Assembly (NCBI GenBank): GCA_025355465.1
Contig: JANXZO010000075.1
Span: 51,564 to 115,563, forward strand
DNA: 64,000 nt
DNA from: Bacteroidales bacterium
Lineage (GTDB): Bacteria > Bacteroidota > Bacteroidia > Bacteroidales > FEN-979
Direction: 5' to 3'
Below the pieces are notes generated by a model. The model ran no database searches. It was given only the letters and a program-made list of their open reading frames with translations, and was not told where the DNA came from. How positions within the stretch are numbered: position 1 is the first letter of the stretch; each line of letters starts with the position of its first letter. A program made the position numbers and the translations under genes. Below, one piece after another: positions 15,180-63,556 of this stretch.

Positions 15180-15265
15180 GAAGGTCCTGATTGTGGAATT
15201 TAACAGCTGCGCAACAACGTGGTACAAAACCAATTTTCATCAAAGTTAAGATTTCGGCAGCATTA

Positions 15266-15281
15266 CTCAAATTTAGTGCCA
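15266..15281 (-). promoter_or_regulatory. Candidate sigma-54 (-24/-12)-like element upstream of the NHL-cytochrome-HK-RR operon
   Basis: The minus strand reads TGGCAC-TAAAT-TTGAG, against the consensus TGGCAC-N5-TTGCW. The -24 box is perfect but the -12 box has A instead of the conserved C. It lies ~85 nt upstream of the ATG at 15179. Weak call. Confidence 0.3.
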
Positions 15282-15443
15282 AAAGGTACCTCAGCGAAAC
15301 AGCGAAGCAGCGAAACAGGAAAAGTTTATTATTCGTCAGTCCGGATTATCCGGGATTGTGGTTTGATATTTGTAAGGTGCGGCGGCAGTTATACAATATT
15401 TCTGCTTCTTTTTCGTAAACTTATCCGGACCAATTCTAAAAAT

Positions 15444-17960
15444 ATGAAAAAAATCTTTGACTTTCTGATATCTTCACAAATGATGTTATTGCTGCTGATG
15501 ACTTTTGCACTGGCCATCGGATCGGCAACTTTTATTGAAGAGAAATTTGATACGGCCACTGCACACCGTGTTGTTTACAATGCCTGGTGGTTCGAGCTGA
15601 TCCTGCTGCTGCTGGCGGTGAATTTTATCGGGTCAATAAAACGATATAACCTCTGGCGCCGGGAAAAAGTTGCCAGCCTGCTTTTTCATCTCGCCTTTGT
15701 CGTGCTGATCATCGGGGCCGGAATTACACGGTATTTTGGTTTTGAAGGTATGATGCACATCCGTGAAGGGGGCTCTTCGCAGGTTATCTTCTGCGAAGGC
15801 AGGGATGGTGCAGGGATGAAAGAGATAACACTCCCGTTTTCGCTGCAGCTCAACGATTTTGTGCTCGACCGTTATGCCGGTTCCATGAGCCCCTCCTCCT
15901 ATGCCAGTGAGGTGACGCTCATCGACACCCGGAAGAATATTCGTGAAGAACACCGGATCTATATGAACCATGTGCTCGATTACGGAGGGTATCGCTTTTT
16001 CCAGTCCTCCTACGACATGGATGAAAAGGGAACAGTGCTCTCGGTGAACCACGACCGTGCCGGCACCTGGGTATCCTACTTCGGATACCTTCTTCTGTCC
16101 ATCGGGTTTGTGGCTACCCTGTTCAGCCGCAACTCAAGGTTCCGCATTCTCAGCAAAGCGATCGACAGGATCCGTGCCGACCGCAAATCCGGCCTTACCG
16201 CCCTGGTAGTATTGCTGTTTATGGTCACCACTTCGGTTTATGCCCAACCGGCCTTGCCAGCGGAACAGCAGGGGGTTCAGGCGCACGTGGGGGCTGCACA
16301 TGCCGAAAAGCTGGGCCACCTGCTGGTACAGACCTTCGATGGCCGGTTTGAACCGATTCATACCCTGGCTTATGATGTGATGCATAAAATTTCGCGCAAA
16401 GATCACTTTCATACAGACCAGAAAGGAGACATGGATGCCGTTCAGGTTTTTGTGGATATGATTATGGATCCTGAATTCTGGAAACAGCAGAAAATTATCT
16501 ATGTACGGGAGAAGCCGGTGAGAGATATCCTCGGTGTAACTGGTGAATATGCCTGTTTCTACGATTTTCTCGATGCGCAGGGGCGGTATAAACTCTCCTC
16601 CTTCGCTGAAACTGCTTTCCGAAAACGGCCGGCAGCGCAAAATGCCTTCGACAAGGAGATCATCAAGGTGGATGAACGGGCCAACATCTGGATGTCGGTT
16701 CAAAATGGTTCACTCCTGAAGATATTCCCGCTTCAGAACGCTCCCAACCACAAGTGGATCAGTTTTGTTGATTCGCTGGCGCAGGTGCCGCTCACCGGAA
16801 AACTCCTGGAGATAAACAAGGACCTTCCGCTTAACCAGTTTGACTACAACAACATGATGCACTACTACATGCAGACAGTTTTTGACGGAGCACGCAACGG
16901 CGACTATGCGCTGGCCGATAAAGCCTTGATGCACCTCTCGGATACCCAGCGGCAGGGAACTCCCGGCACAATCCTGCCCACCCCATCCATGGTAAATACC
17001 GAAATCCGGTACAATAAATCACAGATCTTTGTCACGCTACGTAACATTTATGCAATACTGAGTATTTTGATGCTGATCCTTGCCTTTGTTGACAATCTCC
17101 GGTTAAAAAAGAGCCGGCTGCTCACCCTGGCGCTGAATTTGCTGGCCATCCTGCTCGGTGCCGCCTTCTTATACCATACCTATGGGATGGGACTGCGGTG
17201 GTACCTCACGGGTCATGCCCCCTGGAGCAATGGCTATGAAGCGCTCCTTCTGGTGGCCTGGGGGAGCCTGCTGGCCGGATTCTGTTTCATGCGCTACTCA
17301 AAGATTACCCTGGCAGCCACCGCCGTGCTTGCTTTTATGGTGCTGATGACGGCCGGGCACAGCAGTTACGACCCGCAGCTTACCAACCTTCAGCCGGTGC
17401 TGAAATCCTATTGGCTCATCATTCATGTGGCGGTCATCACGGTGAGTTATGGCTTCCTGGCGTTGGGGTTCCTGCTGGGTATGATCAATATGTGTATCTA
17501 CATTCTAAAGACGGAAGGTACGGCCGCCCGGCTCAATCAGATTATCAAAGAGCTGACGCTGACCAACGAGATGGCGCTCATTATCGGAATCGTACTGGCA
17601 ACCGTAGGCACCTTCCTTGGCGGCGTGTGGGCCAACGAATCGTGGGGACGTTACTGGGGTTGGGATGCCAAGGAGACCTGGGCGCTGGCGATCGTCATCA
17701 CCTATGCCATGATCCTTCACCTGCGTTTTGTACCGGGCATGAAAGGCGGATTTGTCTTTAATGTAGCTTCGGTGATCGGCTTTGGCAGCGTGATCATGAC
17801 CTTTGTCGGGGTTAACTATTACCTGTCGAAAGGACTTCACAGCTATGCCGCCGACGACAACAAGGTTTTCCCGCTCTGGGCCTGGGGAGGGATCGCAGCG
17901 ATCCTGTTGCTGATTGTTGCAGCCTGGTTCCGGGAACGGAGGTTCAAAAATTCGGAGTAA
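15444..17960 (+). CDS. ccsBA: System II cytochrome c biogenesis protein, fused ResB/CcsB-CcsA (CcsBA)
   Basis: ATG at 15444 (MKKIFDFLISSQMMLLLL). The N-terminal part is ResB-like with a large periplasmic loop. The C-terminal part is CcsA-like with a Trp-rich WWD motif (WGRYWGWDAKETWAL) and multiple TM helices. The upstream part of the listed ORF is non-coding. Confidence 0.88.
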   Translation: MKKIFDFLISSQMMLLLLMTFALAIGSATFIEEKFDTATAHRVVYNAWWFELILLLLAVNFIGSIKRYNLWRREKVASLLFHLAFVVLIIGAGITRYFGFEGMMHIREGGSSQVIFCEGRDGAGMKEITLPFSLQLNDFVLDRYAGSMSPSSYASEVTLIDTRKNIREEHRIYMNHVLDYGGYRFFQSSYDMDEKGTVLSVNHDRAGTWVSYFGYLLLSIGFVATLFSRNSRFRILSKAIDRIRADRKSGLTALVVLLFMVTTSVYAQPALPAEQQGVQAHVGAAHAEKLGHLLVQTFDGRFEPIHTLAYDVMHKISRKDHFHTDQKGDMDAVQVFVDMIMDPEFWKQQKIIYVREKPVRDILGVTGEYACFYDFLDAQGRYKLSSFAETAFRKRPAAQNAFDKEIIKVDERANIWMSVQNGSLLKIFPLQNAPNHKWISFVDSLAQVPLTGKLLEINKDLPLNQFDYNNMMHYYMQTVFDGARNGDYALADKALMHLSDTQRQGTPGTILPTPSMVNTEIRYNKSQIFVTLRNIYAILSILMLILAFVDNLRLKKSRLLTLALNLLAILLGAAFLYHTYGMGLRWYLTGHAPWSNGYEALLLVAWGSLLAGFCFMRYSKITLAATAVLAFMVLMTAGHSSYDPQLTNLQPVLKSYWLIIHVAVITVSYGFLALGFLLGMINMCIYILKTEGTAARLNQIIKELTLTNEMALIIGIVLATVGTFLGGVWANESWGRYWGWDAKETWALAIVITYAMILHLRFVPGMKGGFVFNVASVIGFGSVIMTFVGVNYYLSKGLHSYAADDNKVFPLWAWGGIAAILLLIVAAWFRERRFKNSE

Positions 17961-44420: not shown

Positions 44421-44523
44421 GAAATAGCGAAATAGCGAGGTAGCGAAATAGCGAAAAATCGTAAATCGTAAGTCGGATGGCCTTCACATTTGTGCATTTG
44501 TGCATCCGTGCATTCGTGCATAG
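44421..44523. repeat. Tandem 8/7-bp repeat arrays (aaatagcg family, aaatcgt family, catttgtg family)
   Basis: aaatagcg aaatagcg aggtagcg aaatagcg aaaaatcg-t aaatcgt aagtcgg ... catttgtg catttgtg catccgtg cattcgtg. Confidence 0.9.
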
Positions 44524-44611: not shown

Positions 44612-45781
44612 ATGGAAACAGTTCTTTACCGCTATAATCCCTGGTGGACAGGGGTGGTAAGTGAACCGGCGGGAATCGGGAGGCCTTCGGTGGAGGAGCT
44701 CCTTTACGGTCAGCTGGGAAATGACCAGGTGATCTTTATCACCGGGCTGCGACGGATCGGGAAGACCACCCTGATGAAGATGACCATTCACAGGTTGATC
44801 CGGGATTCTGTTACCGACGGCAGACATATTCTTTATGTGAGTCTCGACGATTACCAGCTTCAGAAACAATCCATCATGGATATCGTGGAGGAGTTCAGGA
44901 AGATCAACAAACTGAAGTTTGCAGAGCCTGTCTACCTCTTCCTCGATGAGGTTACCTATAAAGATGATTATGAACTTCAGCTTAAGAACCTGGTGGATGC
45001 GCAAAAAGTCAAGATCATTGCCTCAGCCTCCAGCGCTTCATTGCTGAAGAGCAAGAAAGCATACCTTACCGGACGCCATTTTGATATTGAGGTGAATCCG
45101 CTTACCTTCTCCGAATACCTGGCTTTCAAAGGGATTAATATCCTACCCCAGGATGCCGGACTCACGGAAAATTACTTCGAAGATTTCCTTAAAACGGGCG
45201 GTATTCCGGCCCATGTGCTTACCGGCAATTCCGATTACCTGCGCGAACTGGTCGATGATATCATCTACAAGGATATTGCCGTTAACCAGCAGGTGAAGGA
45301 TGTGCGGGTGCTTAAGGAGTTTTTTCTGCTACTGATGGAAAGGGCAGGGAAACAGTTCAGTATTAACAAGATCGCCCATGTTCTTCAACTCTCACCCGAT
45401 ACGGCCCGTCGATATATCGACCTTTTTGCCGATACCTACCTTATCCACCTCATGAGCCGGCATGGCAAAACCAACGAAAGGATTCTCTCTCCGAAAAAGA
45501 TTTATGCCGCCGATACAGGGATCCGTTGCCTTTTTACTGGCTACCGCGACAAAGGAAGTCTGTTCGAAAATTACATCTACCTGAGAATCCGCCCCCTGGG
45601 ACCTGGATATATCTACGAGAATAAAACGGAGATCGATTTCTACCTTCCCGATAAAACACTCATCGAAGTGAAATACCACAACGAACCCCTCTCCCCGGCT
45701 CAGGAGAAATTGTTTAACAGCTACCCCGCGAAACAAAGGCTGATCATACGAAGTGAGGAAGAGATGCTAGATCTCGGATGA
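44612..45781 (+). CDS. AAA-type ATPase with DUF4143-like C-terminal domain
   Basis: P-loop GLRRIGKTT, Walker B YLFLDEVT, C-terminal nuclease-fold-like region (EIDFYLPDKTLIEVKY). 389 aa. Confidence 0.8.
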   Translation: METVLYRYNPWWTGVVSEPAGIGRPSVEELLYGQLGNDQVIFITGLRRIGKTTLMKMTIHRLIRDSVTDGRHILYVSLDDYQLQKQSIMDIVEEFRKINKLKFAEPVYLFLDEVTYKDDYELQLKNLVDAQKVKIIASASSASLLKSKKAYLTGRHFDIEVNPLTFSEYLAFKGINILPQDAGLTENYFEDFLKTGGIPAHVLTGNSDYLRELVDDIIYKDIAVNQQVKDVRVLKEFFLLLMERAGKQFSINKIAHVLQLSPDTARRYIDLFADTYLIHLMSRHGKTNERILSPKKIYAADTGIRCLFTGYRDKGSLFENYIYLRIRPLGPGYIYENKTEIDFYLPDKTLIEVKYHNEPLSPAQEKLFNSYPAKQRLIIRSEEEMLDLG

Positions 45782-45968
45782 CGGATCACGGATTACGGAC
45801 TTTTTTCATCTGCTGTCTGTCATCTGTCTCAAATCGTCAATCGTTAATCAATCTGACCTTGTGACTTTGTGACTTTGTGACTTTGTGACCTTGTGACCTT
45901 GTGACCCTGTGACCCTGTGCCGTGGTAAAAATAAATTATCAATTATCCATTGTCAATTATCAATTAAT
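45774..45968. repeat. Composite tandem-repeat tract (7-mers acggatN; tctg-rich; 7-mers aatcgtN; 8-mers gtgacNNt; 7-mers aattatc)
   Basis: tcggatg acggatc acggatt acggac (contains the ATPase stop codon at 45779-45781). Then ccttgtga ctttgtga x3 ccttgtga x2 ccctgtga x2 (45857-45921). Then aattatc aattatc cattgtc aattatc aattaat (45934-45968). Confidence 0.9.
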
Positions 45969-46039
45969 GCCTATTTTTGTATTATACTAAAAAGCATAAC
46001 GCTAAATGGTATAACGCTAAAAGGTATAATTTTAAATAT

Positions 46040-47155
46040 ATGATAAACAATCCATTCAGTTACGGAAAGACGGTTGACGGGCCCTATTTTTATGGCCGGG
46101 AGCGGGAGATGGAGGAGATACGGATCTCGATGCAGAATGCCATCAACATAATCCTGTACGCCCCGAGGCGGATCGGGAAGTCTTCGCTGGTGATCAAGGT
46201 GCTGAAGGAGCTCGAGGCGGCTGGTCACCCGGTGGTATACATCGACCTCTTCAAAGTTTCATCGCGCGAAAAGTTCATTGAGCTCTATGCGCGCGAGGTG
46301 GTACGGGGAATGAAGAGCTGGGAGAAGGGGGTTCAGTTTATCAAGGGGGTAATCCGGGGTGTGGAGCCGGTGATGGGTCTCGATCATGCGGGGATGCCTG
46401 AACTGCGCCTCAACATCGATCCGCTGCAGAGCGCCCGGGCCTTCGAAGATATCCTCAACATACCGGGCCGGTCGAAAGGGGAGCGGTGCTGGGTGGTGGT
46501 GTTCGACGAGTTCCAGGAGATCGAAAAACTGGGCGGTGCCGATTTTGAAAAGGAGCTGCGGGCCAGCCTGCAGCATCACAAGAATGCGGCTTACCTGTTT
46601 CTCGGCAGCCAGCGGCACATGCTGCTCAACATGTTTTCGCGCAAAGAGCGGGCCTTTTATAATTTCGGGAAACTCTACCACCTCGACAAGCCACCCGTGA
46701 CCGATTCGGTGGCGTTCGTCGCCCGGCGCTTTGCCGCAGGGGGATACGAAATTGATATACAGATGGCGCAACAGATGGTGGAGCAGACGCACAACATCCC
46801 CTACTACCTGCAATACCTGGGGGCGGAGATATGGGAGAGCGCCCGCCTATCGGGAAAAAAGCCCGTGGAGGTTTACGCCGAAGCCCTCGACCGGCTGCTG
46901 ATCAACCAGGGCGACTACTTCCAGGGAATCCGGAGCCAGCTCACCCCGTTCTATGCAAAACTCCTCACCTCCGTGGCCATCCACGGAGCCGGGAGCTATG
47001 AATCGGAGTTCCTGCAGAAATTCCGCCTCTTCCCTGTCTCCAGCATGCAAAAAGCATATGCCCGCATGATCGACCTCGATATCCTCGAAAAGCGGGAGAA
47101 CCGGTTCTGCATCACCGACCCGTTTTTTGAGATGTGGATGAAACGTCAGAGCTAA
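46040..47155 (+). CDS. ATPase of the archaeal-ATPase/DUF234-like family
   Basis: ATG at 46040 (MINNPFSYGKTVDGPYFYGREREMEEI). P-loop APRRIGKSS, Walker B VVVFDEFQEI, C-terminal winged-helix-like end (FCITDPFFEMWMKRQS). Confidence 0.75.
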   Translation: MINNPFSYGKTVDGPYFYGREREMEEIRISMQNAINIILYAPRRIGKSSLVIKVLKELEAAGHPVVYIDLFKVSSREKFIELYAREVVRGMKSWEKGVQFIKGVIRGVEPVMGLDHAGMPELRLNIDPLQSARAFEDILNIPGRSKGERCWVVVFDEFQEIEKLGGADFEKELRASLQHHKNAAYLFLGSQRHMLLNMFSRKERAFYNFGKLYHLDKPPVTDSVAFVARRFAAGGYEIDIQMAQQMVEQTHNIPYYLQYLGAEIWESARLSGKKPVEVYAEALDRLLINQGDYFQGIRSQLTPFYAKLLTSVAIHGAGSYESEFLQKFRLFPVSSMQKAYARMIDLDILEKRENRFCITDPFFEMWMKRQS

Positions 47156-47273
47156 TGTGGTAATGTGGTGATGTGGTAATGTGAGAATTTGAAGATTTGA
47201 GGATTTGAGAATTATTTCACCCTGTGACCCTGTGACCCTGTGACCCTGTGCCGATTTGTTCACTCGTTCACTT
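47154..47273. repeat. 120-bp tract of 15 consecutive 8-bp units in one register, spanning four unit families
   Basis: aatgtggt aatgtggt gatgtggt aatgtgag aatttgaa gatttgag gatttgag aattattt caccctgt gaccctgt gaccctgt gaccctgt gccgattt gttcactc gttcactt. The first unit overlaps the stop codon (47153-47155). Confidence 0.92.
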
Positions 47274-48139: not shown

Positions 48140-48844
48140 ATGAATCCTTTCATCATCAGGGGTTACAAGGGTAAGAAGTATTTCTGCGACCGGGAGAGTG
48201 AAACTGAGGCCATTGCAGGTGCCATCAAAAATGGCCGCGACATCACGCTGGTGTCGCTGCGCAAAATGGGGAAGACAGGCCTGCTCTTCCACCTTTTCGA
48301 AAAACTGCGTAAGGAGGGGGAGGTGGAGCCGGTCTACCTGGATATTTACCACACGGAGAACCTCAACGGATTGATCGATCAGATGGCCACGGCCCTCTTC
48401 CGGATAAAGAAGAGCTTTGGCGCGCGCATGCAGGAGTTCTTGCGGAACTTTCGCTATGTAAGGCCCTCCGTTACTGTGGATCCGCAAACCGGACTACCCT
48501 CCCTGTCGTTCCAGATAGCAGATGCCAGGGAGGCACGGGGTACGCTCGAGGACCTCTTTGAAATTCTGCAGGAGCGGGGGCGGATTAAGCCCGTGGTGAT
48601 CGCCATCGATGAGTTCCAGCAGATTGCAACCTATCCCGAGCAGCATGTCGAGGCCCTGCTGCGCGGACTGATCCAGTCGCTGAACAATACCCGGTTCATC
48701 TTCTCCGGAAGCAACAAGACACTCCTTACCCGGATGTTCGGCGATGCCGCCCGCCCGTTCTACCAAAGCACAGAGATGATCTGCCGCCGCGGAGAGGAGT
48801 ACTATGTGTACGATGTCTTCTTTTCGAGATGGATGGAGAAGTAG
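48140..48844 (+). pseudogene. Internally deleted paralog of the 46040-47155 ATPase
   Basis: P-loop LRKMGKTG and Walker B VVIAIDEFQQI are retained. After ..PFYQSTEMI the sequence jumps to the family's C-terminal end (YYVYDVFFSRWMEK). Total 234 aa versus 371 aa, so ~130 aa are missing in frame. Confidence 0.5.
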
Positions 48845-48855
48845 GTTTAAGGTAA

Positions 48856-48992
48856 TGTGGGATGTGGGATGTGGGATATGGGATCTGAGATGTGAGATTC
48901 GAGTTCCGAGATTCGAGCTCCGAGTTTCCGGTGACTCGTTCACTCGTTCACTCGTTCACTTTGTAAAATTAATTATCAATTATCAATTATCA
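48856..48992. repeat. Composite tandem-repeat tract: 11 x 7-mers (tgtggga to tccgagt), 4 x 8-mers (cactcgtt), 4 x 7-mers (attatca)
   Basis: tgtggga x3, tatggga, tctgaga, tgtgaga, ttcgagt, tccgaga, ttcgagc, tccgagt, ttccggt. Then gactcgtt cactcgtt cactcgtt cactttgt. Then aaaatta attatca x3. Confidence 0.9.
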
Positions 48993-49018
48993 ATAAGTTT
49001 GCTCCAAATCTCACACTT

Positions 49019-49078
49019 ATGTCTAAAGTTGCGTTGATCTCCGGGGTTACCGGACAGGATGGTAGTTACCTGGCTTAT
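49019..49078 (+). pseudogene. gmd: GDP-mannose 4,6-dehydratase 5' stub (first ~19 codons only)
   Basis: ATG 49019 encodes [20 protein letters not shown], near-identical to the canonical Gmd N-terminus [23 protein letters not shown]. Similarity then stops. TAAGTTTG (-7-like box) lies at 48990-48997. Confidence 0.65.
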
Positions 49079-49084
49079 CAGGTT

Positions 49085-50072
49085 GGTGGAAAGCAAGCCT
49101 CGCCTAAAGAAGTTATACCTTCAGCAGCATAATCCTGAATATACAAGTGTTTACCTGTCGTATTCGGGAAACGGGAATATTAAGCCTGTATCGCCAAGGA
49201 GAGAACGGAAGCGGGAGAGCCTGGTATTAAAGCCCGAAGCAATCGGAAGGTTCGAGGAGTTTCTCACAAAAGCTGCAACCACCGGTCCTGGTTTTCGATA
49301 TTACCCCGATGCACTGGATTATATATTGAAGCTGAGAGATTATTTGAGACGCATTGACCTGATTGCAACCAACTACCTGCCTTCGGTAAAAGGCAACAAG
49401 CTTGATACACTGACGAATGCAGCCGGCACGACACAAAGATTGAGGAGTTCATGAACATCATCAACGAAATCGTCAGTGAAGGGGATGAGAAGATCGTGAT
49501 CTTCAGCCAGTGGGGTCGGTCTTAACCTTCAGGCCGGATCGGTGATTATCAATCTCGATGTGCCCTGGAATCCGGCCGTACTGGAGCAGCGCATCGGCAG
49601 GGTTCACCGTCTTGGGCAAAAGCGCAACGTTAGTGTGATCAACATGGTCTCGGCCGGGACCATTGAACATCGTATGCTCGACGTCCTGAAATTAAAATCC
49701 TCAATGGCTGCGGGCATTCTCGACGGGGGAGAAGATGCCATTTTCATGGGTGAAAGCCGGTTTAAAAAATTCATGTCCACGGTGGGTGAACTGATGAACA
49801 GGGAGGCTGGAGCGGTGAACAGAGCGCCGGAGGTGGTAACTCGTGATCAGGAAGTCCTCACTCCTGAACCGGAGAAATTACTGCATACGCCTGGAGTCCC
49901 GGATGGTTTGGCGGCAGCCGGGGAGCTGGTTGCAAAAGGAATGGACTTTTTATCGACGCTTGCGGCCGCATTGTCGCATCCCGATTCGGTAAAGCAGCTG
50001 ACCGAATCGCTCGTTGCGGAGGATCCCGCCAGCGGGAAGAGCTATTTAAGAATCCCCGTCGTAAAACCCTAA
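49085..50072 (+). pseudogene. SNF2-family helicase C-terminal remnants (frameshifted, internally deleted)
   Basis: Pieces in different frames: ..KIEEFMNIINEIVSEGDEKIVIFSQW (about 49440-49515), then LNLQAGSVIINLDVPWNPAVLEQRIGRVHRLGQKRNVSVINMVSAGTIEHRM (helicase motifs V-VI). The region between IFSQW and GLNLQ is missing. The final codons and stop come from the repeat flank ccccgtcgtaaaaccctaa. Confidence 0.65.
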
Positions 50073-50086
50073 GGCATTTAAAAAGG

Positions 50087-50150
50087 AAATAGCGAAATAG
50101 CGAGATAGCGAGATAGCGAAATTATTTGTGCATCTGTGCATTCGTGCATT
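50087..50150. repeat. 8-bp tandem array (aaatagcg to tgtgcatt families), near-duplicate of 44421-44523
   Basis: aaatagcg aaatagcg agatagcg agatagcg aaattatt tgtgcatc tgtgcatt cgtgcatt. Preceded by the same cctaaggcattt anchor as at 44403. Confidence 0.9.
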
Positions 50151-50730: not shown

Positions 50731-52419
50731 ATGAAAAAGCTATATCTCCTTATTATCATTTTATTTATTGCCGGATCCGTCTACTCCCAGATCGTCTACG
50801 AGGACATCAACAACACTGCTATTTATGAATTCCTGGATGAGTTAGCTAATAACCGGATTATCGAGTTGAATTCGGTCGTGAAACCCTACTCCAGAGCCTA
50901 TATTGCCGCGAAGTTGAGGGAGGCGGAGTTAATAGTTAAGAGTGAAGAGTTAAGAGTTAAGAGTGAGGAGTTAAGAGTTAGGGTGAGCAGGAGGTTGGTG
51001 GAGGAGTTGGAGTTTTATCTGCAGGATTATCAGTTGGAGGGGAAAACAATTCCGGTTACGTATGAGCATAAGGTGGGGTTTATTGCGAAGAATAATCCGA
51101 ATATGAAGGTGGCGTTGAATCCGTTGGCTTTTAATTACAAGGATTCGTTGTTTACCTTTTCGATACGGCCGATATTGGGGGTGCAGTGGATGACGAATGA
51201 GAACGGCGCTGAGTATCACCGCTGGTGGGGTGGGAGTATGTTTGGATACATTGGCAAGAACTTTGGGTTTTATGCCAATATCAGGGACAATGAGGAGAGT
51301 ACGCCTCTGGCTAAGCCGGTTTATTTTACCGAGGCGCAGGGACAGGTTTATAAAAACATGGAAAAGGGTGCTGTGAACTACAGCGAGATGCGGGGGGGGA
51401 TTGTTGCTTCAGTAAGCTGGGGGTCGATCGGGATCATGAACGACCGGGTGGTGTGGGGCGACAACTACCATGGGGCAAATATTCTCTCCGGCAAGGCGCC
51501 GGCCTTTCCCTATCTGCAACTGCACCTGAACCCGGTGAAGTGGTTTGACTTTAACTACATGCATGGATGGCTTAACTCTAATATCATCGACAGCAGCCGT
51601 TCCTATTATATCGATGGGGTTTACCGGCAAACGCTCCGAAATAAATACATTGCTGCGAATATGTTCACCTTTATCCCCTGGCGGGGATTGAATCTCTCGT
51701 TCGGGAATTCGATCATCTACAGTGATATTAATATTAATCCGCTCTATTTTATCCCATTCCTGTTTTACAATGCCGTAGATGCAAGCCGGACAAATTATGC
51801 AGATTATGCAGGTTCCAACTCGCAACTATTCTTCAATATCAGCAGCCGGCAGATCAGGTACCTGCATCTGTTTGTTTCGCTCTATATTGATGAGTGGAAG
51901 ACTTCACGGGTTACTGATCCAAAAAAGAACAACTTTACCAGCCTCAAGGCAGGGTTCAGGTTAAGTGATTTTCCGGTAAAAAACCTGTCGCTTACTGCTG
52001 AGTACACCCGCACCATGCCCATGACCTACGACCATTACATCGCCACCACCACCTTTGCCTCCAACGACTACGTGCTGGGGAATTACATGCGGGAGAATTC
52101 GCAGGAGATCTATGTTGCCCTCGCATGGAGGCCAATCCGGGGACTTTTGATCAACACCTCCTATACACTGGCACAACATGGAGCTGATGTGAAATATCGT
52201 AACAATGCCGGCTACGCCGTGGATGGTGTGCCCTTCCTGAAAAACAAAACCTGGCAGAACAGCGCTTTCGAGCTCTCAGCCAGGTATGAGTTTGTGAGTA
52301 ACGGGTATTTCTTTGTTCAGTATCTAAACGGGGAACAACAAGGGGATGTTAAATACCTGCCGGTATTTATGCATGGCAGGACGAGTACGTTACTCTGTGG
52401 AGTGAACGTAGGGATTTAA
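50731..52419 (+). CDS. Outer-membrane protein, capsule-assembly Wzi-like
   Basis: Signal peptide present. The N-terminal helical motif (IYEFLDELANNRIIELNSVVKPYSRAYIAAKL) resembles what I recall of Wzi-family proteins. A long beta-barrel-like remainder follows. Contains an in-frame heptamer-repeat insertion (see repeat 50929-50984). Confidence 0.55.
   Translation: MKKLYLLIIILFIAGSVYSQIVYEDINNTAIYEFLDELANNRIIELNSVVKPYSRAYIAAKLREAELIVKSEELRVKSEELRVRVSRRLVEELEFYLQDYQLEGKTIPVTYEHKVGFIAKNNPNMKVALNPLAFNYKDSLFTFSIRPILGVQWMTNENGAEYHRWWGGSMFGYIGKNFGFYANIRDNEESTPLAKPVYFTEAQGQVYKNMEKGAVNYSEMRGGIVASVSWGSIGIMNDRVVWGDNYHGANILSGKAPAFPYLQLHLNPVKWFDFNYMHGWLNSNIIDSSRSYYIDGVYRQTLRNKYIAANMFTFIPWRGLNLSFGNSIIYSDININPLYFIPFLFYNAVDASRTNYADYAGSNSQLFFNISSRQIRYLHLFVSLYIDEWKTSRVTDPKKNNFTSLKAGFRLSDFPVKNLSLTAEYTRTMPMTYDHYIATTTFASNDYVLGNYMRENSQEIYVALAWRPIRGLLINTSYTLAQHGADVKYRNNAGYAVDGVPFLKNKTWQNSAFELSARYEFVSNGYFFVQYLNGEQQGDVKYLPVFMHGRTSTLLCGVNVGI
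50929..50984 (+). repeat. Heptamer array inside the Wzi-like CDS, translated as (VKSEELR)x2
   Basis: ttaatag ttaagag tgaagag ttaagag ttaagag tgaggag ttaagag ttagggt. Three heptamers make 7 codons, giving ..LIVKSEELRVKSEELRVRV... The units are reverse complements of the ctcttaa/ctcctca units at 52893-52969. Confidence 0.9.
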
Positions 52420-52517
52420 TCAAACTCTTAATTCTTAATTCTTTTGCTCTCAGGCCAGGCGGGATTTGTACTTTTCTTTTGCTTGTCCAAAAGAAAACTA
52501 CGAAAAGAAAAAGACAG

Positions 52518-52728: not shown

Positions 52729-52861
52729 GTCATCAAGACTTACGAAGTAAGTTGCAGATGAAGAGTAACGCCGGGTTTTAACCCGGTGACAGGTGCGGCG
52801 CCAGCCGCCCTGGGTGGGAGGGTGGGGCTTGTGCTTCTCAATTCACAAGTACAAATCTAAA

Positions 52862-52969
52862 ATGGCAAAATGCAAAATGGCAAAATCGTAAACTCCTCAC
52901 TCTTAACTCTTAACTTTTAACTCCTCACTCTTAACTGTTAATTCCTAATTCTTAATTCCTAATTCCTAA
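52862..52969. repeat. Tandem arrays: aaaatggc family (8/7-mers) then 11 x 7-mers (ctcctca/ctcttaa to ttcctaa)
   Basis: aaaatggc aaaatgc aaaatggc aaaatcgt ... ctcctca ctcttaa ctcttaa cttttaa ctcctca ctcttaa ctgttaa ttcctaa ttcttaa ttcctaa ttcctaa (52893-52969). The array ends 7 nt before the stop codon of the minus-strand gene. Confidence 0.9.
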
Positions 52970-52976
52970 TTGACTT

Positions 52977-54101
52977 TTACCCCGCTCTCTTCTTCATCGA
53001 CTTAATGACCGTCCAGGGGAGGGTGTGGCTCTTCTTTTGGTTGAAATAGATGGGGATATAGGTGAGGATGAGTCCTGATCCTACCAGGATGGTTGTGCCC
53101 AGGTATAGGTTCAGGTGTTGCATCTCAAAGGAGAGGATGATATAGCAGATGCTTACCAGGAAAAGGATGGCTGTGACCTGTTTGTGGCTGAAGCCGAGAC
53201 TGAGGAGTTGATGATGGATATGGGTTTTGTCGGGGTAAAAGGGGGATTTTCCCTGAAGGATCCGGGTGAGCATCACGCGGCAGGTGTCGAAGATGGGGAT
53301 GATGAGGATACCGAAGGAGACCACCGGGGAGGCTTCGATGTGCCAGGGCAGATTGGCTGAGAGGTTTAGCCCGTTGAAGCGGATCACCATCACCGACATC
53401 ATGAAGCCGAGAAAGAGGGAGCCGGTGTCGCCCATGAAGATCTTGTTCTTCTTCGACCAGAGGTTGAAGCGCAGGAAGGCGAGGAGGGCGCCGATGTTGG
53501 CGCCGCAGATCAGCGCATAACCGGGTTGGTTGTTGATGTAAAACCAGGCGCCGAAGGTGGCAAAGGCGGTGAGGGCCATGGTGCCTGCCAGGCCGTCGAC
53601 CCCATCGATGAGGTTGAAAGCGTTGGTGATGCCCAGGATGAGGAAGAGGGTGAAGAAGATGCTGAGGGGGTAGCTGATCCCGTTTACGCCGAAATAGCCG
53701 TGAAAGCTGGTGAAGCGGATGTCGGCCAGCAGGATGAGGATGAGGGCGGCGATGATCTCGGCGATGAACTTCTTGTAGAAGGAGATGCCCAGGATATCGT
53801 CTTTGATGCCGATGAAGAAGATGATCACGCTGCCGGCAATGAGATACTGGTACTCGGGGAATTCGAAGATCCTCAACAGGAGCGAAGTCGCTACAATGAC
53901 GCTGAGAAAGATGGAGATGCCGGCCAGCCGGGGGGTGGGGAGGGCGTGGGCGGCGCGGAGGTTGGGCTGGTCGTATATCTTACTGTTGTGGGCGATCCTT
54001 ACCAGTATGGGTATGGAGTAGTAACAGAGCAGCAGCGCTACGGCCAGTGCCAGCAGGATCAGTTGATCGTCGGTAAAGATTTTGTGTAAAAGGTCGCCCA
54101 T
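52977..54101 (-). CDS. MraY/WecA-family polyprenyl-phosphate N-acetylhexosamine-1-phosphate transferase (paralog A)
   Basis: Multi-TM protein with family motifs IKDDILG, NAFNLIDGVDGLA, MGDTGSLFLGF, IPIFDT.RV, PDKTHIHH. Confidence 0.88.
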   Translation of the reverse strand: MGDLLHKIFTDDQLILLALAVALLLCYYSIPILVRIAHNSKIYDQPNLRAAHALPTPRLAGISIFLSVIVATSLLLRIFEFPEYQYLIAGSVIIFFIGIKDDILGISFYKKFIAEIIAALILILLADIRFTSFHGYFGVNGISYPLSIFFTLFLILGITNAFNLIDGVDGLAGTMALTAFATFGAWFYINNQPGYALICGANIGALLAFLRFNLWSKKNKIFMGDTGSLFLGFMMSVMVIRFNGLNLSANLPWHIEASPVVSFGILIIPIFDTCRVMLTRILQGKSPFYPDKTHIHHQLLSLGFSHKQVTAILFLVSICYIILSFEMQHLNLYLGTTILVGSGLILTYIPIYFNQKKSHTLPWTVIKSMKKRAG

Positions 54102-54332
54102 CGTTAAAATCAGAGAACAAATAAAGGAAAAAGGTTGCTTTGACCGGCTGCAAAGCTAAGAAATTATTTCCAGATACTGTTTCGATGCTAACATCATGAT
54201 AGGTTATAAATAGGTACAAAAATAAAATAATTCACTATTTTTACCTTTTCCTTGCGTTTTTGTTATAGTAATATTATATTTGCCACCAATAATAATAATT
54301 GTCCCTGAACATTACTTGAACAGCTGCCTTTG

Positions 54333-55448
54333 ATGGATCTGAACCTGCTCCTAAAAATCATTCTCTCACTGGGTGTAGCCTTTGCGATAACGGCCATGCT
54401 TGTGCCTGTGGTGGTGAGTATTGTGAAGGAGAAGGGGGTGGTTGCCCACGAGAATGGCCGCACCTCTCACACCGGCACGATCCCCACCATGGGTGGGATT
54501 GCCATCTTTGCCGGCTTCCTGATCTCGGTTCTGGTATTCTCGGGTTCCGGGTTCCGCGACGACTTCCGCTATGTGATTGCCGGGGCGGTATTTATGCTGA
54601 TGGTGGGAATGAAGGACGATATCCAGGGAATTACCCCATGGATGAAGTTTGCAGGACAGATTATTGCAGCCTTGATCATCATTATACCGGGAGATATCCG
54701 GTTTACAAGCCTGCAGGGGTTCCTGGGGATTGAGGAGATCAGTTATTTCTGGAGTGTGGTGATCTCTTTGGTTACCATTGTCGGGTTGACCAACTGTTTT
54801 AACCTGATCGATGGCATTGATGGACTTGCCTCCGGAATAGGCACCCTGGTATCAGTTACCTTAGGGATTTGGTTTGGATTGGCAGGTCAATTTGGGTTGA
54901 TGTTTATTTGCCTGGCCCTTGTTGGATCGCTGATTGCTTTTTCAATCTACAACATCTGGGGGAAGGAGAACAAAATATTTATGGGGGATACCGGTTCGCT
55001 TGTGCTGGGCTTTATCCTCGCAGCCCTGGTTATCGAATTCAATGAATTAAACGTGGGGGTGCAGACTTCGGTGGATCTCATCTCGGCTCCCGCCATCAGC
55101 GTAGGGATCCTGATCGTGCCGGTTTTCGACACGCTGCGGGTCTTTATGCTGAGGATGTACCGGCTGAAACATCCCTTCAGCCCCGACAAAACCCATGCAC
55201 ACCACAACCTCATCTCCCTCGGGGCTTCTCACCCGCGGGCAACACTATCCCTTATTTTCCTGAACTTCCTGTTCATCGGTATCTCCTTCCTCCTCAACGG
55301 ACTGGGAAACACCTTCGTGCTCCTGATCGTGATGCTGCTTGCGCTGGTGGCCTTCTACCTGCCGGTATTTGTATTGCGGTTTAAGAACAGCGAGGGGAAC
55401 TCTTTTCGCAACTGGGTTGCGAAGGTTTCAATGAATCTTTTTGTTTAA
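54333..55448 (+). CDS. MraY/WecA-family transferase (paralog B)
   Basis: ATG at 54333 (the listed first M is a TTG). Motifs MKDDIQG, NCFNLIDGIDGLA, MGDTGSLVLGF, VPVFDTLRV, PDKTHAHH. Divergent from paralog A across a 231-bp spacer. Confidence 0.88.
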   Translation: MDLNLLLKIILSLGVAFAITAMLVPVVVSIVKEKGVVAHENGRTSHTGTIPTMGGIAIFAGFLISVLVFSGSGFRDDFRYVIAGAVFMLMVGMKDDIQGITPWMKFAGQIIAALIIIIPGDIRFTSLQGFLGIEEISYFWSVVISLVTIVGLTNCFNLIDGIDGLASGIGTLVSVTLGIWFGLAGQFGLMFICLALVGSLIAFSIYNIWGKENKIFMGDTGSLVLGFILAALVIEFNELNVGVQTSVDLISAPAISVGILIVPVFDTLRVFMLRMYRLKHPFSPDKTHAHHNLISLGASHPRATLSLIFLNFLFIGISFLLNGLGNTFVLLIVMLLALVAFYLPVFVLRFKNSEGNSFRNWVAKVSMNLFV

Positions 55449-55804: not shown

Positions 55805-56687
55805 TCAACCTTTTTCCCATTGATGAAATGGTTGTGCAGTGATGGTTTTATGATCGATGGTGAAGGTATCCGACTGATCATGCGTTATAAGGCATGCGTT
55901 TTGAACCCCGAAATAATTCATGGCCTCCAATATTCCGTCTATTTCCCTGTCCATATTGTTCTGGTCTAATTGCCAGCATACCTGATAAAGGCCCTTCAAT
56001 TTTCCATTTTGAAATGCGACGAAATCACATTCTTTTTTATCCGAGAAGTAGAAAATCTCAGGTGTTTGCCGTCGCAGATTCAGATAGACCATATTCTCGA
56101 GGAGCCTGCCTTTATCCTCACTAAAAGAAACCGAATTAACATCAATGAAACCGTTATCAATACAGTAAACTTTTTTAGCATTTACAACCTGTATCTTATG
56201 AGAATAGCTGAATTTAGGAACAAAAAAGAAAAAGCAGGCATCGACAAAATAGGAGAGATAGTCCATCATACAGGAGGAAGAGCCAATCTGAAATATTTTT
56301 CTCAGACTGTTACCAGTAATGGGTTTTCCGGTATTTGACACAAGCCATACTGCAAGTTGTTGCAAAACATGGTTGTTTTTTAAATTGTACCGTATTACAA
56401 TATCACGAATGACAATATCATTGAAAGCCTGCATCAGTACCTCAGGCAATCCTGTTTTCAAATATTCAGGAAAGCCTCCCGTTTTCATGTATTTCTCTGA
56501 TGAACTGGCATCCCGGCCCTGGTTTGTAAAAGCAAGATATTCGGTATATGAGAAAGGGAATAATTCTCAATGCATGTGATGTCAGGTCGGCGAAACCTTC
56601 GACAGATCGTGGTAACCCCGAATCCATTTGGGTTAAGCGTTCTTTCTGGGAACCAATTACCTGCTCAATGAATAATTTCGATAACAC
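55805..56687 (-). pseudogene. DUF4143-type ATPase with its P-loop domain deleted
   Basis: The N-terminal ~35 aa (MLSKLFIEQVIGSQKERL...) join, in another frame, to ELFPFSYTEYLAF..KYMKTGGFPEYL and an intact C-terminal region. Compare VNPLTFSEYLAF..FLKTGGIPAHVL in the 44612 paralog. No Walker A or B motif remains. Confidence 0.65.
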
Positions 56688-56757
56688 AACTGCAAAGTTT
56701 TCGTTCGTAAAGTTAACTATTATTCGCTCACAGGAAAAACTTTTATTTATGAAAAAT

Positions 56758-56829
56758 TGATGAGGTGATGAGGTGATGAGGTGATAGTGTGATGAAGTGA
56801 GGGAGTGATGCGGTGATGGAGTAATGCGG
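56758..56829. repeat. 9 x 8-bp tandem array (tgatgagg family)
   Basis: tgatgagg x3, tgatagtg, tgatgaag, tgagggag, tgatgcgg, tgatggag, taatgcgg. All units are in one register. Confidence 0.9.
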
Positions 56830-56852
56830 TCAGTATGCTTTTACAGTAGCGG

Positions 56853-57290
56853 TTATAACATGCCGTGTGTTCTCAGTATTTCGGCAAGATCGGGGTGTTT
56901 CTTTGAGTATTCCCGAAGCAATGTCAAAAGAGTGCGGCTGTTTTCGTCGGCCTTCGCTGCTTGTTCCAAAGCTGGTTTCATAGCGGTACGGCGATCCCAG
57001 ATCATGTACCCCAGCATAAAGAGGAACAGGGTGATTAAAATGCCAAATCCCCAGAAAAAAAGTGTCTTAATGTCATCCAACTGTCTTTGCTGACTTTCAA
57101 ACTTGAATTCCATTTTGGCTTCGAGCGCATTTATTTTGGCTTCGAGTGCACCTATTTTGGCTTCGGTAAGAATGGCACGGTCACGGTCGGCCAAGGTATA
57201 TGGCACTGCCAATTGCTGCTCCTGCGCTGATACCGTGAGGTTAAGTATTGTTAGAAAAAGCAGACTGATATAAACAAGCGCTTTCATCAT
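56853..57290 (-). CDS. Hypothetical membrane protein with a coiled-coil ectodomain
   Basis: Signal peptide, heptad-like EAKIGALEAKINALEAKM, one TM helix (FFWGFGILITLFLFMLGYMIW). 145 aa. Confidence 0.45.
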   Translation of the reverse strand: MMKALVYISLLFLTILNLTVSAQEQQLAVPYTLADRDRAILTEAKIGALEAKINALEAKMEFKFESQQRQLDDIKTLFFWGFGILITLFLFMLGYMIWDRRTAMKPALEQAAKADENSRTLLTLLREYSKKHPDLAEILRTHGML

Positions 57291-57309
57291 ACTTGAATTT
57301 GAAGCGAAG

Positions 57310-57935
57310 TTACAAAATTAATGTAACGTATCCATTCGACCACGAGCTTCTTTTTTGATAACAAGGTGATGGGGTGATCCAGAATACGCGTAAGGTGTCG
57401 AATACCGGGATGGCCAGGATTCCGATAGCCACGGCAGGTGCCGCTCTCAGGGTCATGACTGTTTTGCCCGGGATGGCCGATTCACAAAACTTTATCGTAA
57501 AAAAAGCCAGGATAAATCCAAGGACCAATGCACCGGTGTCGCAGTGGCAATGATCACGAGTTCCAGCTGTCCGGTAAACCAAAACCATAATCCAAAAGTA
57601 AATGTTGCGATTCCGGTAATACCGGCAGCCAGTCCGTCAATCCCGTCGATCAGGTTGATTTCATGGAATCCCAGAAAACCGTGGATATCGGTGATCCGTA
57701 AGTTTCCGAAAAAAATAAGCAGATCAAAAGCAATCAGTTCACCAATAAATTTTTGGGTGGCCGTGAGAATAAGCAAATCATCTTTTACTCCCATAATGAA
57801 TATAATGATCACCGCTACCATGAAAAATTTCAATTCAGGCAGATATGATCCATGCAGGAAAAACAGTGAACTCAATCCCATGGCGGTGAAAATGGCAATA
57901 CCTCCAAGAGTGGGTATGGCTCCGTCATGTGAATC
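57310..57935 (-). pseudogene. MraY/WecA-family remnant (A'), truncated at both ends and frameshifted
   Basis: Begins at ..RDSHDGAIPTLGGIAIF, so ~45 N-terminal codons are missing. Contains VKDDLL and NLIDGIDGLA with an internal deletion. A frameshift near 57590 precedes DTGALVLGF..IPVFDTLRVF, and the sequence decays after that. Confidence 0.7.
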
Positions 57936-59049
57936 CCGGCCGAACCTGCTCCTTAAAATCATTCTCTCACTGGGTGTAGCCTTTGCGATAACGGCCATGC
58001 TTGTACCGGTGGTGGTGAGTATTGTAAAGGAAAAAGGGGTGGTTGCACATGAAAATGGCCGCACCTCTCACACCGGCAGTATCCCCACCATGGGGGGGGA
58101 TCGCCATATTTGCCGGCTTCCTGATCTCGGCCTGGTCTTTTCGGGCTCCGGATTCCGCGACGACTTCCGCTATGTGATTGCCGGTGCAGTATTTATGCTA
58201 ATGGTGGGGATGAAGGATGACATTCAGGGAATTACCCCCTGGATGAAGCTTGCAGGTCAGATTATTGCAGCCCTGATAATCATTGTGCCGGGAGATATCC
58301 GTTTTACCAGCCTGCAGGGGTTTTTGGGGATTGAAGAGATCAGTTATTTCTGGAGCGTGGTAATCTCATTGGTTACCATTGTCGGGTTGACGAACTGCTT
58401 TAACCTGATTGATGGCATTGATGGACTTGCCTCAGGAATAGGCACCCTGGTCTCAATTACCTTAGGGATCTGGTTTGGATTGGCGGGTCAATATGGACTG
58501 ATGTTTATTTGCCTTGCCCTTGTTGGATCCCTGATTGCCTTTTCAATCTACAACATCTGGGGCAAGGAGAACAAGATATTTATGGGCGATACCGGTTCGC
58601 TTGTGCTTGGTTTTATCCTCGCAGCCCTGGTTATCGAATTCAATGAGTTGAATGTGGGGGTGCAGACTTCAGTTGATCTCATTTCAACCCCGGCTATAAG
58701 TATCGGGATTATGATCGTACCCGTATTTGATACACTCCGGGTATTTATTCTCAGAATGTGGCGAAGAAAACACCCTTTTTCTCCAGACAAGACCCATACG
58801 CATCACAATCTGATTAACTTGGGGGCATCTCATCACAAGGCCACGTTATCGCTGATGTTTCTTAATGGTATTTTCATTGCTATTTCATTTGCATTAAACT
58901 CTCTGGGTGCTACGATTCTCTTAACCCTTATCATGGCTTTAGCATTACTGGCATTCTATCTCCCGATTTTTGCCTTTCGGTTTAAGGATAAAGATTCTAC
59001 CCGACTTCGCACGAGACTTGCCAGGGTTACTTCGTTGTTTATTGCTTGA
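57916..59049 (+). pseudogene. MraY/WecA-family paralog B' (~90% nt identity to 54333-55448), with a replaced 5' end and a compensated double frameshift
   Basis: Homology to B starts at gaacctgctcc (57942); the native start codon and promoter are gone. The only in-frame ATG (57916) lies inside the antisense of A'. A G8 run at 58092-58099 (+1) and a -1 about 45 nt later convert TM-helix residues IAIFAGFLISVL into DRHICRLPDLGL. The listed 501-aa ORF (57544-59049) is a read-through artefact. Confidence 0.55.
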
Positions 59050-59056
59050 TTTAATT

Positions 59057-59088
59057 GTGACAAAGTCACAGGGTCACAGGGTCACAAG
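59057..59088. repeat. 8-bp tandem array (gtcacagg, the reverse complement of the cctgtgac family)
   Basis: gtgacaaa gtcacagg gtcacagg gtcacaag, starting 8 nt after the stop of B'. Confidence 0.85.
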
Positions 59089-59126
59089 GGAAAAAGATGT
59101 TATTTCCCCGTATTCAACCTAAACCG

Positions 59127-59768
59127 CTATAAGGCTGTTTTATCAGGTGATTTAATTTTGGAGAAGACTTCAATCCAAAGGATAAATAGCAGGAATATAA
59201 CAATGTAGATGAAAAAATTGAAGAGGTCGTGGTGATCGTATTTTCTTATTCCTAAAATGGATATGGTTTTGTTTGCAAAGTTGGTTCCATCTCTGCTTAG
59301 CCAAGTCAGGTAGGCCATTCTTGAAACATTCAAGGCAAATATTAGTATTAGCCCTAGTAGCACGTAGGGGATCTTAATTTGAATCTTTCCTGGCCATGCC
59401 ATTATAAGGGCTGTATATACTAACATGACTCCTAAACCCAGGCAAGAGAATCCAAGAAAGACCTTAACCCCAGTGCCAACTTGTAAAGCGAATACCCCGT
59501 AATGATAAATATTGGTTTCGAAGGTAAGGTTGGCAATATACCCAAGTTGACCCAATAATGCCTGGGCGGAAATCATCATTATTTTACCTAGGTGATAAAC
59601 CGGGAATGAGATGCTCAAGGCGGACTGAACGAAAGGATTACTTCGAAATATACTAAGAAGTAACAAGGCAGGAAGGGTAAGAATTCCAAGATTAAGTGCA
59701 AATTTTATAAAGGGATGATACTTAGGATTAACCTTGGATAAGACCATTTTGTATGGGAGGATATTCAT
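59127..59768 (-). CDS. Exosortase/archaeosortase-family membrane protein (XrtF-like)
   Basis: 213 aa, polytopic. Cys, Arg and His candidates occur in the exosortase order (GFSCLGLG, ALNVSRMAY, YDHHDLF). The locus also has a DUF3473-type deacetylase. Assignment from memory of the family, not verified. Confidence 0.5.
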   Translation of the reverse strand: MNILPYKMVLSKVNPKYHPFIKFALNLGILTLPALLLLSIFRSNPFVQSALSISFPVYHLGKIMMISAQALLGQLGYIANLTFETNIYHYGVFALQVGTGVKVFLGFSCLGLGVMLVYTALIMAWPGKIQIKIPYVLLGLILIFALNVSRMAYLTWLSRDGTNFANKTISILGIRKYDHHDLFNFFIYIVIFLLFILWIEVFSKIKSPDKTAL

Positions 59769-59812
59769 TTTGAGTTATGCAGAGTAATACGTGAGTTCTT
59801 ATTAAATTTTAA

Positions 59813-60472: not shown

Positions 60473-60532
60473 ATTTATGATTCTGGTTTAAAAGTTTTTT
60501 GCTTTCATTGAATTAATTGGAAGCGTTTTCAA

Positions 60533-61753: not shown

Positions 61754-61759
61754 AAACCA

Positions 61760-62689: not shown

Positions 62690-62705
62690 GTCAGGTTCAG
62701 ATGTT

Positions 62706-63548: not shown

Positions 63549-63556
63549 ATTAACAA

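Follow-up and report, generated by a model that had tools for sequence, protein, structure and literature searches.

We analysed a window of 64,000 nucleotides (nt), the whole of the DNA considered here, from contig JANXZO010000075.1 of a Bacteroidales bacterium (GenBank assembly GCA_025355465.1). A gene at 50731..52419 on the plus strand, the only long open reading frame (ORF) of its region, encodes an outer-membrane protein of 562 amino acids (aa) with a Wzi-like fold comprising a signal peptide, three N-terminal helices and a beta-barrel. Inside this gene, at 50929..50984 (+), lies an in-frame array of eight heptamers of the ARTTARG family, which encodes part of the connection between helix 2 and helix 3, a position that we refer to as hypervariable site 1. 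The observations described below suggest that the array is probably a domesticated simple sequence repeat (SSR) of intergenic type acting as an in-frame linker of variable length, and not a demonstrated site of phase variation.

The eight units of the array read ttaatag ttaagag tgaagag ttaagag ttaagag tgaggag ttaagag ttagggt and occupy 56 nt, corresponding to codons 67-85 of the ORF. The first base of the array is position 1 of codon 67, since (50929-50731)/3 = 66, which establishes the frame, and the array is translated as LIVKSEELRVKSEELRVRV. Tandem Repeats Finder (TRF) reports the tract 50926-50980 at two periods, giving 7.9 copies with 83% matches and a score of 82 at period 7, and 2.6 copies with 94% matches and a score of 96 at period 21 (consensus GAGTTAAGAGTTAAGAGTGAA). 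The longest perfect tract is 20 nt, or 2.9 units, at period 7 and 34 nt at period 21. The effective period of 21 nt is a multiple of three and the ORF is kept open, as in an in-frame coding tandem repeat. An initial annotation of this DNA had described a heptamer array in frame inside a Wzi-like gene, and the sequence, the ORF and the TRF results all confirm that description.

When the whole window was searched with the ARTTARG pattern (three units, at most 3 mismatches) and shuffled sequence was used as the null, 17 matches were found, compared with 0.03 expected from shuffles. All 17 lie within 50927-50982 (+), 52420-52440 (-) and 52888-52971 (-). The last two belong to non-coding arrays that are also recognised in the sequence and by TRF. 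One is a short array of the same family (52420..52443, minus strand) that starts 1 nt past the stop codon of the gene and is antisense to it. The other is a compound array (52888..52971, minus strand) of AATTAGG/AATTAAG and then AGTTAAG/AGTGAGG units, which contains stops in six frames and ends 5 nt from the stop of a convergent gene. The coding units ttaagag and tgaggag are exact reverse complements of the downstream units ctcttaa and ctcctca, as had been stated previously, and in addition a 25-nt string, AGTTAAGAGTTAAGAGTGAGGAGTT, occurs without any difference in the in-gene array and, on the minus strand, in the intergenic one. With this inverted orientation and 25 nt of perfect complementarity, the two arrays, 1.9 kb apart, could form a cis-acting element by pairing in the mRNA, or by recombining so that the gene is inverted or disrupted. 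We consider such an element extremely unlikely because the orientation is not conserved: among related loci, all of which come from metagenome assemblies, L084/L088 and L001 have the downstream arrays in direct orientation, L087 and L094 have them inverted, and L016 has both. A conserved inverted arrangement of gene and array, needed for either RNA pairing or DNA inversion, was rejected on these grounds. No recombinase gene is adjacent, and an Rfam scan of 44-60 kb identified no family, the only hit being a sub-threshold match to sR33 at 48862-48925 that is a chance match on repeats. A promoter and terminator scan of 50.0-53.2 kb gave nothing above shuffles.

The sequence of the in-gene array differs from a pure repeat in a way that keeps the gene open. 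A pure TTAAGAG array in the frame of the gene would be translated as LRVKS*ELRVKS*ELRVK, whereas the actual array contains no stop. Since 7 and 3 are coprime, one unit in three would have its TAA in frame. In this array these are units 3 and 6, and precisely these two are stop-free variants. Unit 3 (50943..50949, plus strand) is TGAAGAG, in which a T-to-G change relative to TTAAGAG turns the would-be in-frame TAA into GAA, as is seen when the pure and the actual array are translated side by side. Unit 6 (50964..50970, plus strand) is TGAGGAG and reads GAG at the corresponding codon. These two units also explain why the array matches better at a period of 21 nt than at 7 nt. TGAGGAG is present in the intergenic copy as well, but there it is spaced by four units, and all six frames contain stops. 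The non-coding pool thus includes stop-free variants, which stand in the required register only in the coding array.

The description of this repeat as intergenic-type also holds when the other arrays of the window are considered. The window contains approximately 20 distinct arrays of 7- or 8-nt units, almost all of which lie wholly or mostly in intergenic gaps, and sequence outside long ORFs makes up roughly 11% of the window; a few arrays extend across a stop codon or into the 5' part of an ORF. The arrays cluster at 44-59 kb, with almost none in 1-44 kb. They are compound, in that between two and four unit families follow one another head to tail, and they begin 0-90 nt past stop codons. 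Such compound arrays are found at 44421-44521, 45770-45966, 47153-47250, 48855-48994, 50086-50150, 52859-52971, 56758-56830 and 59065-59086. The unit families AAATAGCG, AATGCACG, AAGGTCAC, ACCACGGC, AAATCGT, AATTATC and ACGCGTC recur in non-coding sequence of related metagenome-assembled genomes (60-90% protein identity), in what looks like a shared repertoire. The ARTTARG family itself is present in non-coding arrays of L001, L016, L084, L087, L094 and others, and in 282 non-gene arrays from 137 related loci no other heptamer family is as frequent as AATTAGG and AACTCTT (equivalent to AGTTAAG). Head-to-tail arrays of 5-11-nt units that are mostly intergenic, with a unit family recurring across loci and related genomes, are the hallmarks of the long-SSR class, and the arrays of the window show both. 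The presence of stops in all six frames was considered as a general cause of intergenic placement and was rejected, as the stop content of the 282 non-gene arrays equals the random expectation; the six-frame stop property is limited to the ARTTARG family itself.

We located site 1 in 126 loci by means of conserved flanking anchors and counted the residues between 'KLxEA' and 'NKRQxKEL'. The site is 7 residues long in 44 distant loci (about 42-50% identity) and 9-36 residues long across the closer clade, with 20 in the window, and the VKSEELR residues were found in none of the homologues beyond the immediate clade among these 126 loci. The proposal that the repeat-coded residues are an insertion is thus borne out, as an insertion or expansion at a hypervariable site, and the observation that would have spoken against it, the same residues in homologues that lack such arrays, was looked for and not made. 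A second hypervariable site, in the linker between helix 3 and strand 1 just after FYLQDYQLE, emerges from the homologue alignment; its position in the window is 51040..51054 (+), where it is unoccupied. In many homologues the peptides at the two sites are evident translations of short DNA repeats (ELGIRNEELGVRSEELGVRN, SGFKSQVSGFKSQ and RDTGYEIRDTRYG). The peptide SSRVTRHASR derives from GTCACGC units and NLPTYQPTNLPTYQ from an 8-nt unit. At site 2 the arrays include GTCACGC x4 (L085), a 30-nt repeat (L016) and, in L137, GAATTAG/GAATGAG x8.9 of the ARTTARG family adjoining two other families.

TRF detected in-gene arrays in 27 loci. Exact matches to non-gene arrays were found for 13 of the 22 in-gene unit families, compared with 11% for random heptamers, and the median density of arrays in the flanks was 12.8 bases per kb for loci with in-gene arrays versus 2.3 for the others (Mann-Whitney p = 0.004), both statistics being calculated with no account taken of relatedness and redundant contigs. 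Exact matches were used because family overlap with up to 1 mismatch is uninformative (null 85%). The earlier suggestion that the repeat-generating process is not restricted to non-coding DNA is clearly borne out by these 27 loci and by the families common to gene and non-gene arrays. The same data bear on the idea that the peptide repeat, perhaps a heptad or coiled coil, is selected for itself and resembles the non-coding arrays by coincidence. The 7-residue period, the charged and helix-friendly sequence ELRVKSE and a helix modelled up to residue 73 would fit this idea, but the coding array has exact DNA identity with neighbouring non-coding arrays, and the model has low confidence across the segment. 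Moreover, the peptides that homologues have at this site are unrelated, and each matches a different DNA repeat family; some of the units are 8 nt long and encode repeats of 8 residues. With unrelated repeat families at one and the same site from lineage to lineage, selection for the peptide appears very improbable.

More than 2,600 homologues of the window protein were found, all from uncultured Bacteroidales or Bacteroidota, and some relatives carry the name 'capsule assembly Wzi family protein'. For the window protein, neither Pfam, at E<=0.1 or E<=0.01, nor NCBIfam gives a match; PF14052 (Caps_assemb_Wzi) is matched by 19 of 84 aligned homologues (best E 5.7e-9) and not by the window protein itself. 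An AlphaFold2 (AF2) model based on the 84-sequence alignment, with a predicted local distance difference test score (pLDDT) of 87.3 and a predicted template modelling score (pTM) of 0.86, contains a signal peptide, helices at residues 29-40, 55-73 and 87-99 and a large beta-barrel from about residue 125, and so reproduces the three-helix N-terminal bundle and large barrel of Wzi. The best Foldseek match in the PDB is Escherichia coli Wzi (2YNK; E 4.2e-11, template modelling score (TM) 0.68 normalised to Wzi). A sequence-profile search of the PDB with the family gave no match, so that Wzi was found by the fold search alone and the kinship is therefore distant. The gene context suggests polysaccharide synthesis and is conserved in relatives. 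The convergent neighbour (52977..54101, minus strand) encodes a glycosyl transferase family 4 (GT4) protein according to Pfam (PF00953), and the pairing is conserved in relatives, which keep this neighbour and have epimerase, Bac_transf, Polysacc_synt_2 and DegT genes in addition. In the window three paralogous GT4 (PF00953) genes lie within 6 kb, at 52977-54101 (-), 54330-55448 (+) and 57544-59049 (+). Genes of the wza, wzb and wzc type were not noticed, though no search aimed at them was made. The name 'Wzi-like', used in the initial annotation, is supported by the fold and the homologues and finds no direct Pfam match; it is reasonable for the fold and the context and does not denote demonstrated family membership.

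In the AF2 model, residues 67-85 form the C-terminal end of helix 2 (helix to residue 73) and then, toward helix 3, a loop at 73-82 with pLDDT <50. The structure-model check proposed earlier thus places the insertion at the end of helix 2 and in a low-confidence loop of the N-terminal bundle, and the previous description of a helical segment applies up to residue 73 and not to the loop that follows. An AF2 model of the homologue P0036, which has a 33-residue site 1, shows the same confident core; its repeat-coded stretch has low confidence (block means 54-68) with short helical turns only, and its second repeat region is modelled as disordered. The possibility that longer arrays extend the helices was rejected on the basis of this P0036 model. 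E. coli Wzi is described as having a three-helix bundle that precedes strand 1 and plugs the periplasmic end of the barrel, with its periplasmic facing shown experimentally (Bushell et al. 2013, PMC3791409). By analogy with this distant structural homologue, the repeat-coded loop would be periplasmic and not surface-exposed, which weakens the earlier rationale of a surface protein, since homology to Wzi would put the segment in a periplasmic helical bundle and not in an extracellular loop.

Comparisons between relatives show how site 1 has changed. In five orthologues with roughly 80-92% identity (the window, L001, L002, L047 and L087/L089), its length is identical, 20 residues, and its sequence has turned over: it consists of AGTTAAG in the window, AATTAGG/AATTAAG in L001 and AATTGAT in L002, and is partly decayed in L047. 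L002 has parallel substitutions in successive 21-nt blocks, and such parallel unit substitutions within lineages indicate concerted turnover. L086 and L089, with 96% aa identity in the barrel, differ by 7 residues at site 1. L016, L134 and L136 are three strains of one related species, and over approximately 1.85 kb they differ in length only by indels in the repeats. L016 and L136 are 100.00% identical at the nt level over 1,872 nt apart from one 30-nt indel in the site-2 repeat; L134 is 99.08% identical in nt to each of them; it differs from both by a single clean indel of 21 nt within the heptamer array at site 1, and from L016 additionally by the 30-nt indel at site 2. Three-unit changes had been expected to alter the length of the segment, and the 21-nt indel between these 99%-identical strains of a related species is such a change. 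The 30-nt repeat at site 2 of the three strains encodes GPSPASTSST, an S/T/P-rich disordered linker, and it varies by one unit between flanks that are 100% identical.

None of these changes disturbs the frame. No frameshift at the array was found in the 27 array-bearing loci (0/27), all length differences measured in DNA or between the closest pairs preserve the frame, and in P0006, an array-bearing 90% cluster, all 14 of the 14 full-length members are 583 aa long. This evidence bears directly on the suggestion that the array is a potential contingency locus, at which the gene would frequently be turned off and on by slippage of one or two heptamers. Phase variation would be favoured by the 7-nt unit, which is not divisible by three, by the position of the array near the start of a gene for an outer-membrane protein, and by the proposal that heptanucleotide tracts within ORFs are sites of phase variation in Haemophilus influenzae (PMC2651432). 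However, the longest perfect tract in the present array is 20 nt (2.9 units), compared with 13-14 perfect units in H. influenzae, and the stop-avoiding interruptions break the heptamer register. The 27 loci include no out-of-frame allele, only in-frame differences being seen among relatives, the P0006 members are equal in length, and the segment would be periplasmic by homology. With a tract this short and impure, with no frameshifted locus and with constant lengths in the five orthologues and in P0006, we now regard a contingency site as quite improbable. In L087, about 400 nt into the orthologue, a TGA stands in frame at a conserved tryptophan codon (GVH*MSNENG), and L089, which does not differ otherwise, retains W there. 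The TGA has nothing to do with the array and reflects a sequencing error or a pseudogene.

It is also conceivable that the length differences are adaptive, with repeat copy number tuning the reach or flexibility of the periplasmic bundle, for example in contact with a polysaccharide export partner, and with the variation itself being selected. The 21-nt and 30-nt indels between strains whose genes are otherwise identical, the two recurrent hotspots within one protein family and the 20 residues held in five orthologues despite sequence turnover are all consistent with an adaptive length modulator, and in E. coli Wzi the helices are needed for function or stability (PMC3791409). On the other hand, the repeat-coded residues form a low-confidence loop with no conserved residues, and unrelated unit families occupy the same site across lineages, as expected of tolerated insertions and not of a selected motif. 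We therefore consider selected length modulation unlikely.

Several features of the window lie near these subjects. An ORF of 77 aa at 48804-49037 (+) consists almost wholly of heptamer and octamer arrays (ATGTGGG, CGAGTTC, ACTCGTTC and AATTATC) and is almost certainly not a gene. Two arrays fall within the first approximately 100 nt of longer ORFs, namely an 8-nt array, CAGCGAAA x4, at 15292-15322 in ORF 15219..17960 and a 15-nt array of 2.9 copies at 45987-46029 in ORF 45977..47155; the true starts of both ORFs may lie downstream of the arrays. A 21-nt tandem repeat that is not heptamer-based (2.6 copies, 90% matches) is present at 57112-57165, inside the 145-aa ORF 56853..57290 (-). Between 44612 and 50072 there is a run of AAA_14/DUF4143 and ATPase_2/STAND-like ATPase genes with repeat arrays between each, which includes at 49542..50072 a fragment with only the end of a Helicase_C domain, and this run looks like a variable or degraded island beside the polysaccharide genes. 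Over 56001-64000 the G+C content drops from about 0.50 to 0.37-0.42.

The explanation that we favour, and consider likely, is that an SSR of intergenic type was domesticated in this gene as an in-frame linker whose length can vary. An ARTTARG (AGTTAAG/AATTAGG) repeat, of a family that in this lineage is normally non-coding and found beside stop codons, would have come to be translated here, in the stretch that joins helices 2 and 3 of the N-terminal bundle and that is structurally permissive. Since a pure array has TAA in every frame, an ORF could hold it only with a stop-free variant at every third unit, and the presence of TGAAGAG and TGAGGAG at these units would both keep the ORF open and give rise to the 21-nt super-period and its 7-residue peptide repeat. 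The array would then change through point substitutions and through the addition or removal of complete 21-nt blocks when copies of the super-period slip during replication or recombine unequally, with the loop growing or shrinking by 7 residues and no frameshift resulting. As the interruptions that open the frame also break the heptamer register, slippage should occur preferentially in the frame-preserving 21-nt register. The segment itself is probably a tolerated flexible linker whose variation may be near-neutral.

Some points weigh against this explanation. The variability of the window's own array is deduced from relatives: the exact window protein is recorded on 4 contigs, a scan of Joint Genome Institute (JGI) metagenomes gave no relative closer than 88% identity, the closest other sequences are 88% identical, and the copy-number polymorphism was observed in orthologues of another species. 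Metagenome assemblies can mis-size repeats, a risk that is small here because arrays of <100 nt are normally spanned by single reads. The two recurrently occupied hotspots, and the length of 20 residues kept in five orthologues, could reflect selection on linker length. The first arrival of the repeat could have been either an insertion from elsewhere or a local de novo amplification. A further proposal is that the arrays are the footprint of an active, lineage-specific process that seeds 7- and 8-nt units of the repertoire beside stop codons and occasionally in permissive coding loops. If so, the two hotspots would record repeated independent insertion or conversion events. Examples would be ARTTARG, which occupies site 1 in the window and site 2 in L137, and AATTGAT, which takes its place in L002 and L086 with position and length unchanged; we find this active seeding decidedly doubtful.

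If the array is a domesticated SSR, the locus provides a documented case of a non-coding SSR turned into protein sequence. It points to a constraint, in that stop codons force a 21-nt super-period which makes later slippage frame-preserving, to a type of tolerant site, the disordered connections in a periplasmic helical bundle, and to a tempo, strains with 99-100% identity being separated by indels of a single block. For annotation, it serves as a warning that a non-triplet repeat in an outer-membrane protein gene need not mean a phase-variation switch. A wider lead for further study is the 7-/8-nt repertoire that related uncultured Bacteroidales share in compound arrays behind stop codons.

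Among the long SSRs of prokaryotes, heptamers are the over-represented unit size and lie mostly between genes (Mrazek et al. 2007, as cited in PMC4692102 and PMC4679880), and several known systems can be compared with the array described here. TAACTGA arrays in Beggiatoaceae, cyanobacteria and five Bacteroidetes are mostly intergenic heptamers near gene ends, and some Bacteroidetes have 'larger assemblages' of several heptamer families per intergenic region; a minority of the arrays lie in ORFs, at the protein periphery, where they are translated as 7-residue repeats (LSVISYQ), and ORFs do not carry the arrays in the orientation that puts stops in every frame (MacGregor 2015, PMC4679880). The predominance of intergenic heptamers, the compound assemblages and the translation of some arrays as 7-residue repeats are common to both cases. 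The present unit family differs, however, being ARTTARG; the stop-containing orientation is carried in an ORF because every third unit is a stop-free variant; the array occupies an internal loop of a well-conserved protein in which orthologues document turnover; and arrays abut stop codons here and not start codons. The GGGAATC and GGGGAYT repeats of Xanthomonas and Nostoc, and other cyanobacterial heptamers, are about 90% intergenic and lie tens of nt from a neighbouring stop codon; their length and sequence differ between close relatives, and polymerase slippage has been proposed (Rehm et al. 2015, PMC4692102). Our arrays resemble these in being heptameric, intergenic, near stop codons and variable between relatives, but they are not G-rich or quadruplex-forming, they combine many unit families in compound arrays, and the case studied is coding.

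Within ORFs, H. influenzae has (AATTTTG)14 in hmw1A and (AACAACC)13 in a TonB-dependent receptor gene, with a frameshifted allele reported (Power et al. 2009, PMC2651432). These tracts share with the present array a 7-nt unit in a gene for an outer-membrane or surface protein, in which a one-unit change would shift the frame, but they are long and perfect (13-14 units), while the array described here has at most 2.9 perfect units and a 21-nt super-period, and the variants seen among relatives are all in frame. E. coli Wzi (2YNK) resembles the window protein in having a barrel after a three-helix bundle, and polysaccharide-synthesis genes lie near its gene; sequence identity in the structural alignment is approximately 10%, and the passages of the Wzi report on which we draw mention no repeat-derived insertion (Bushell et al. 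2013, PMC3791409). The case belongs to the known kind of heptamer SSR. It stands out in that a 21-nt super-period allows a unit with stops to be translated, that the repeat is housed in an internal loop of a conserved outer-membrane protein, that two hotspots recur across a clade, and that block indels are documented between strains.

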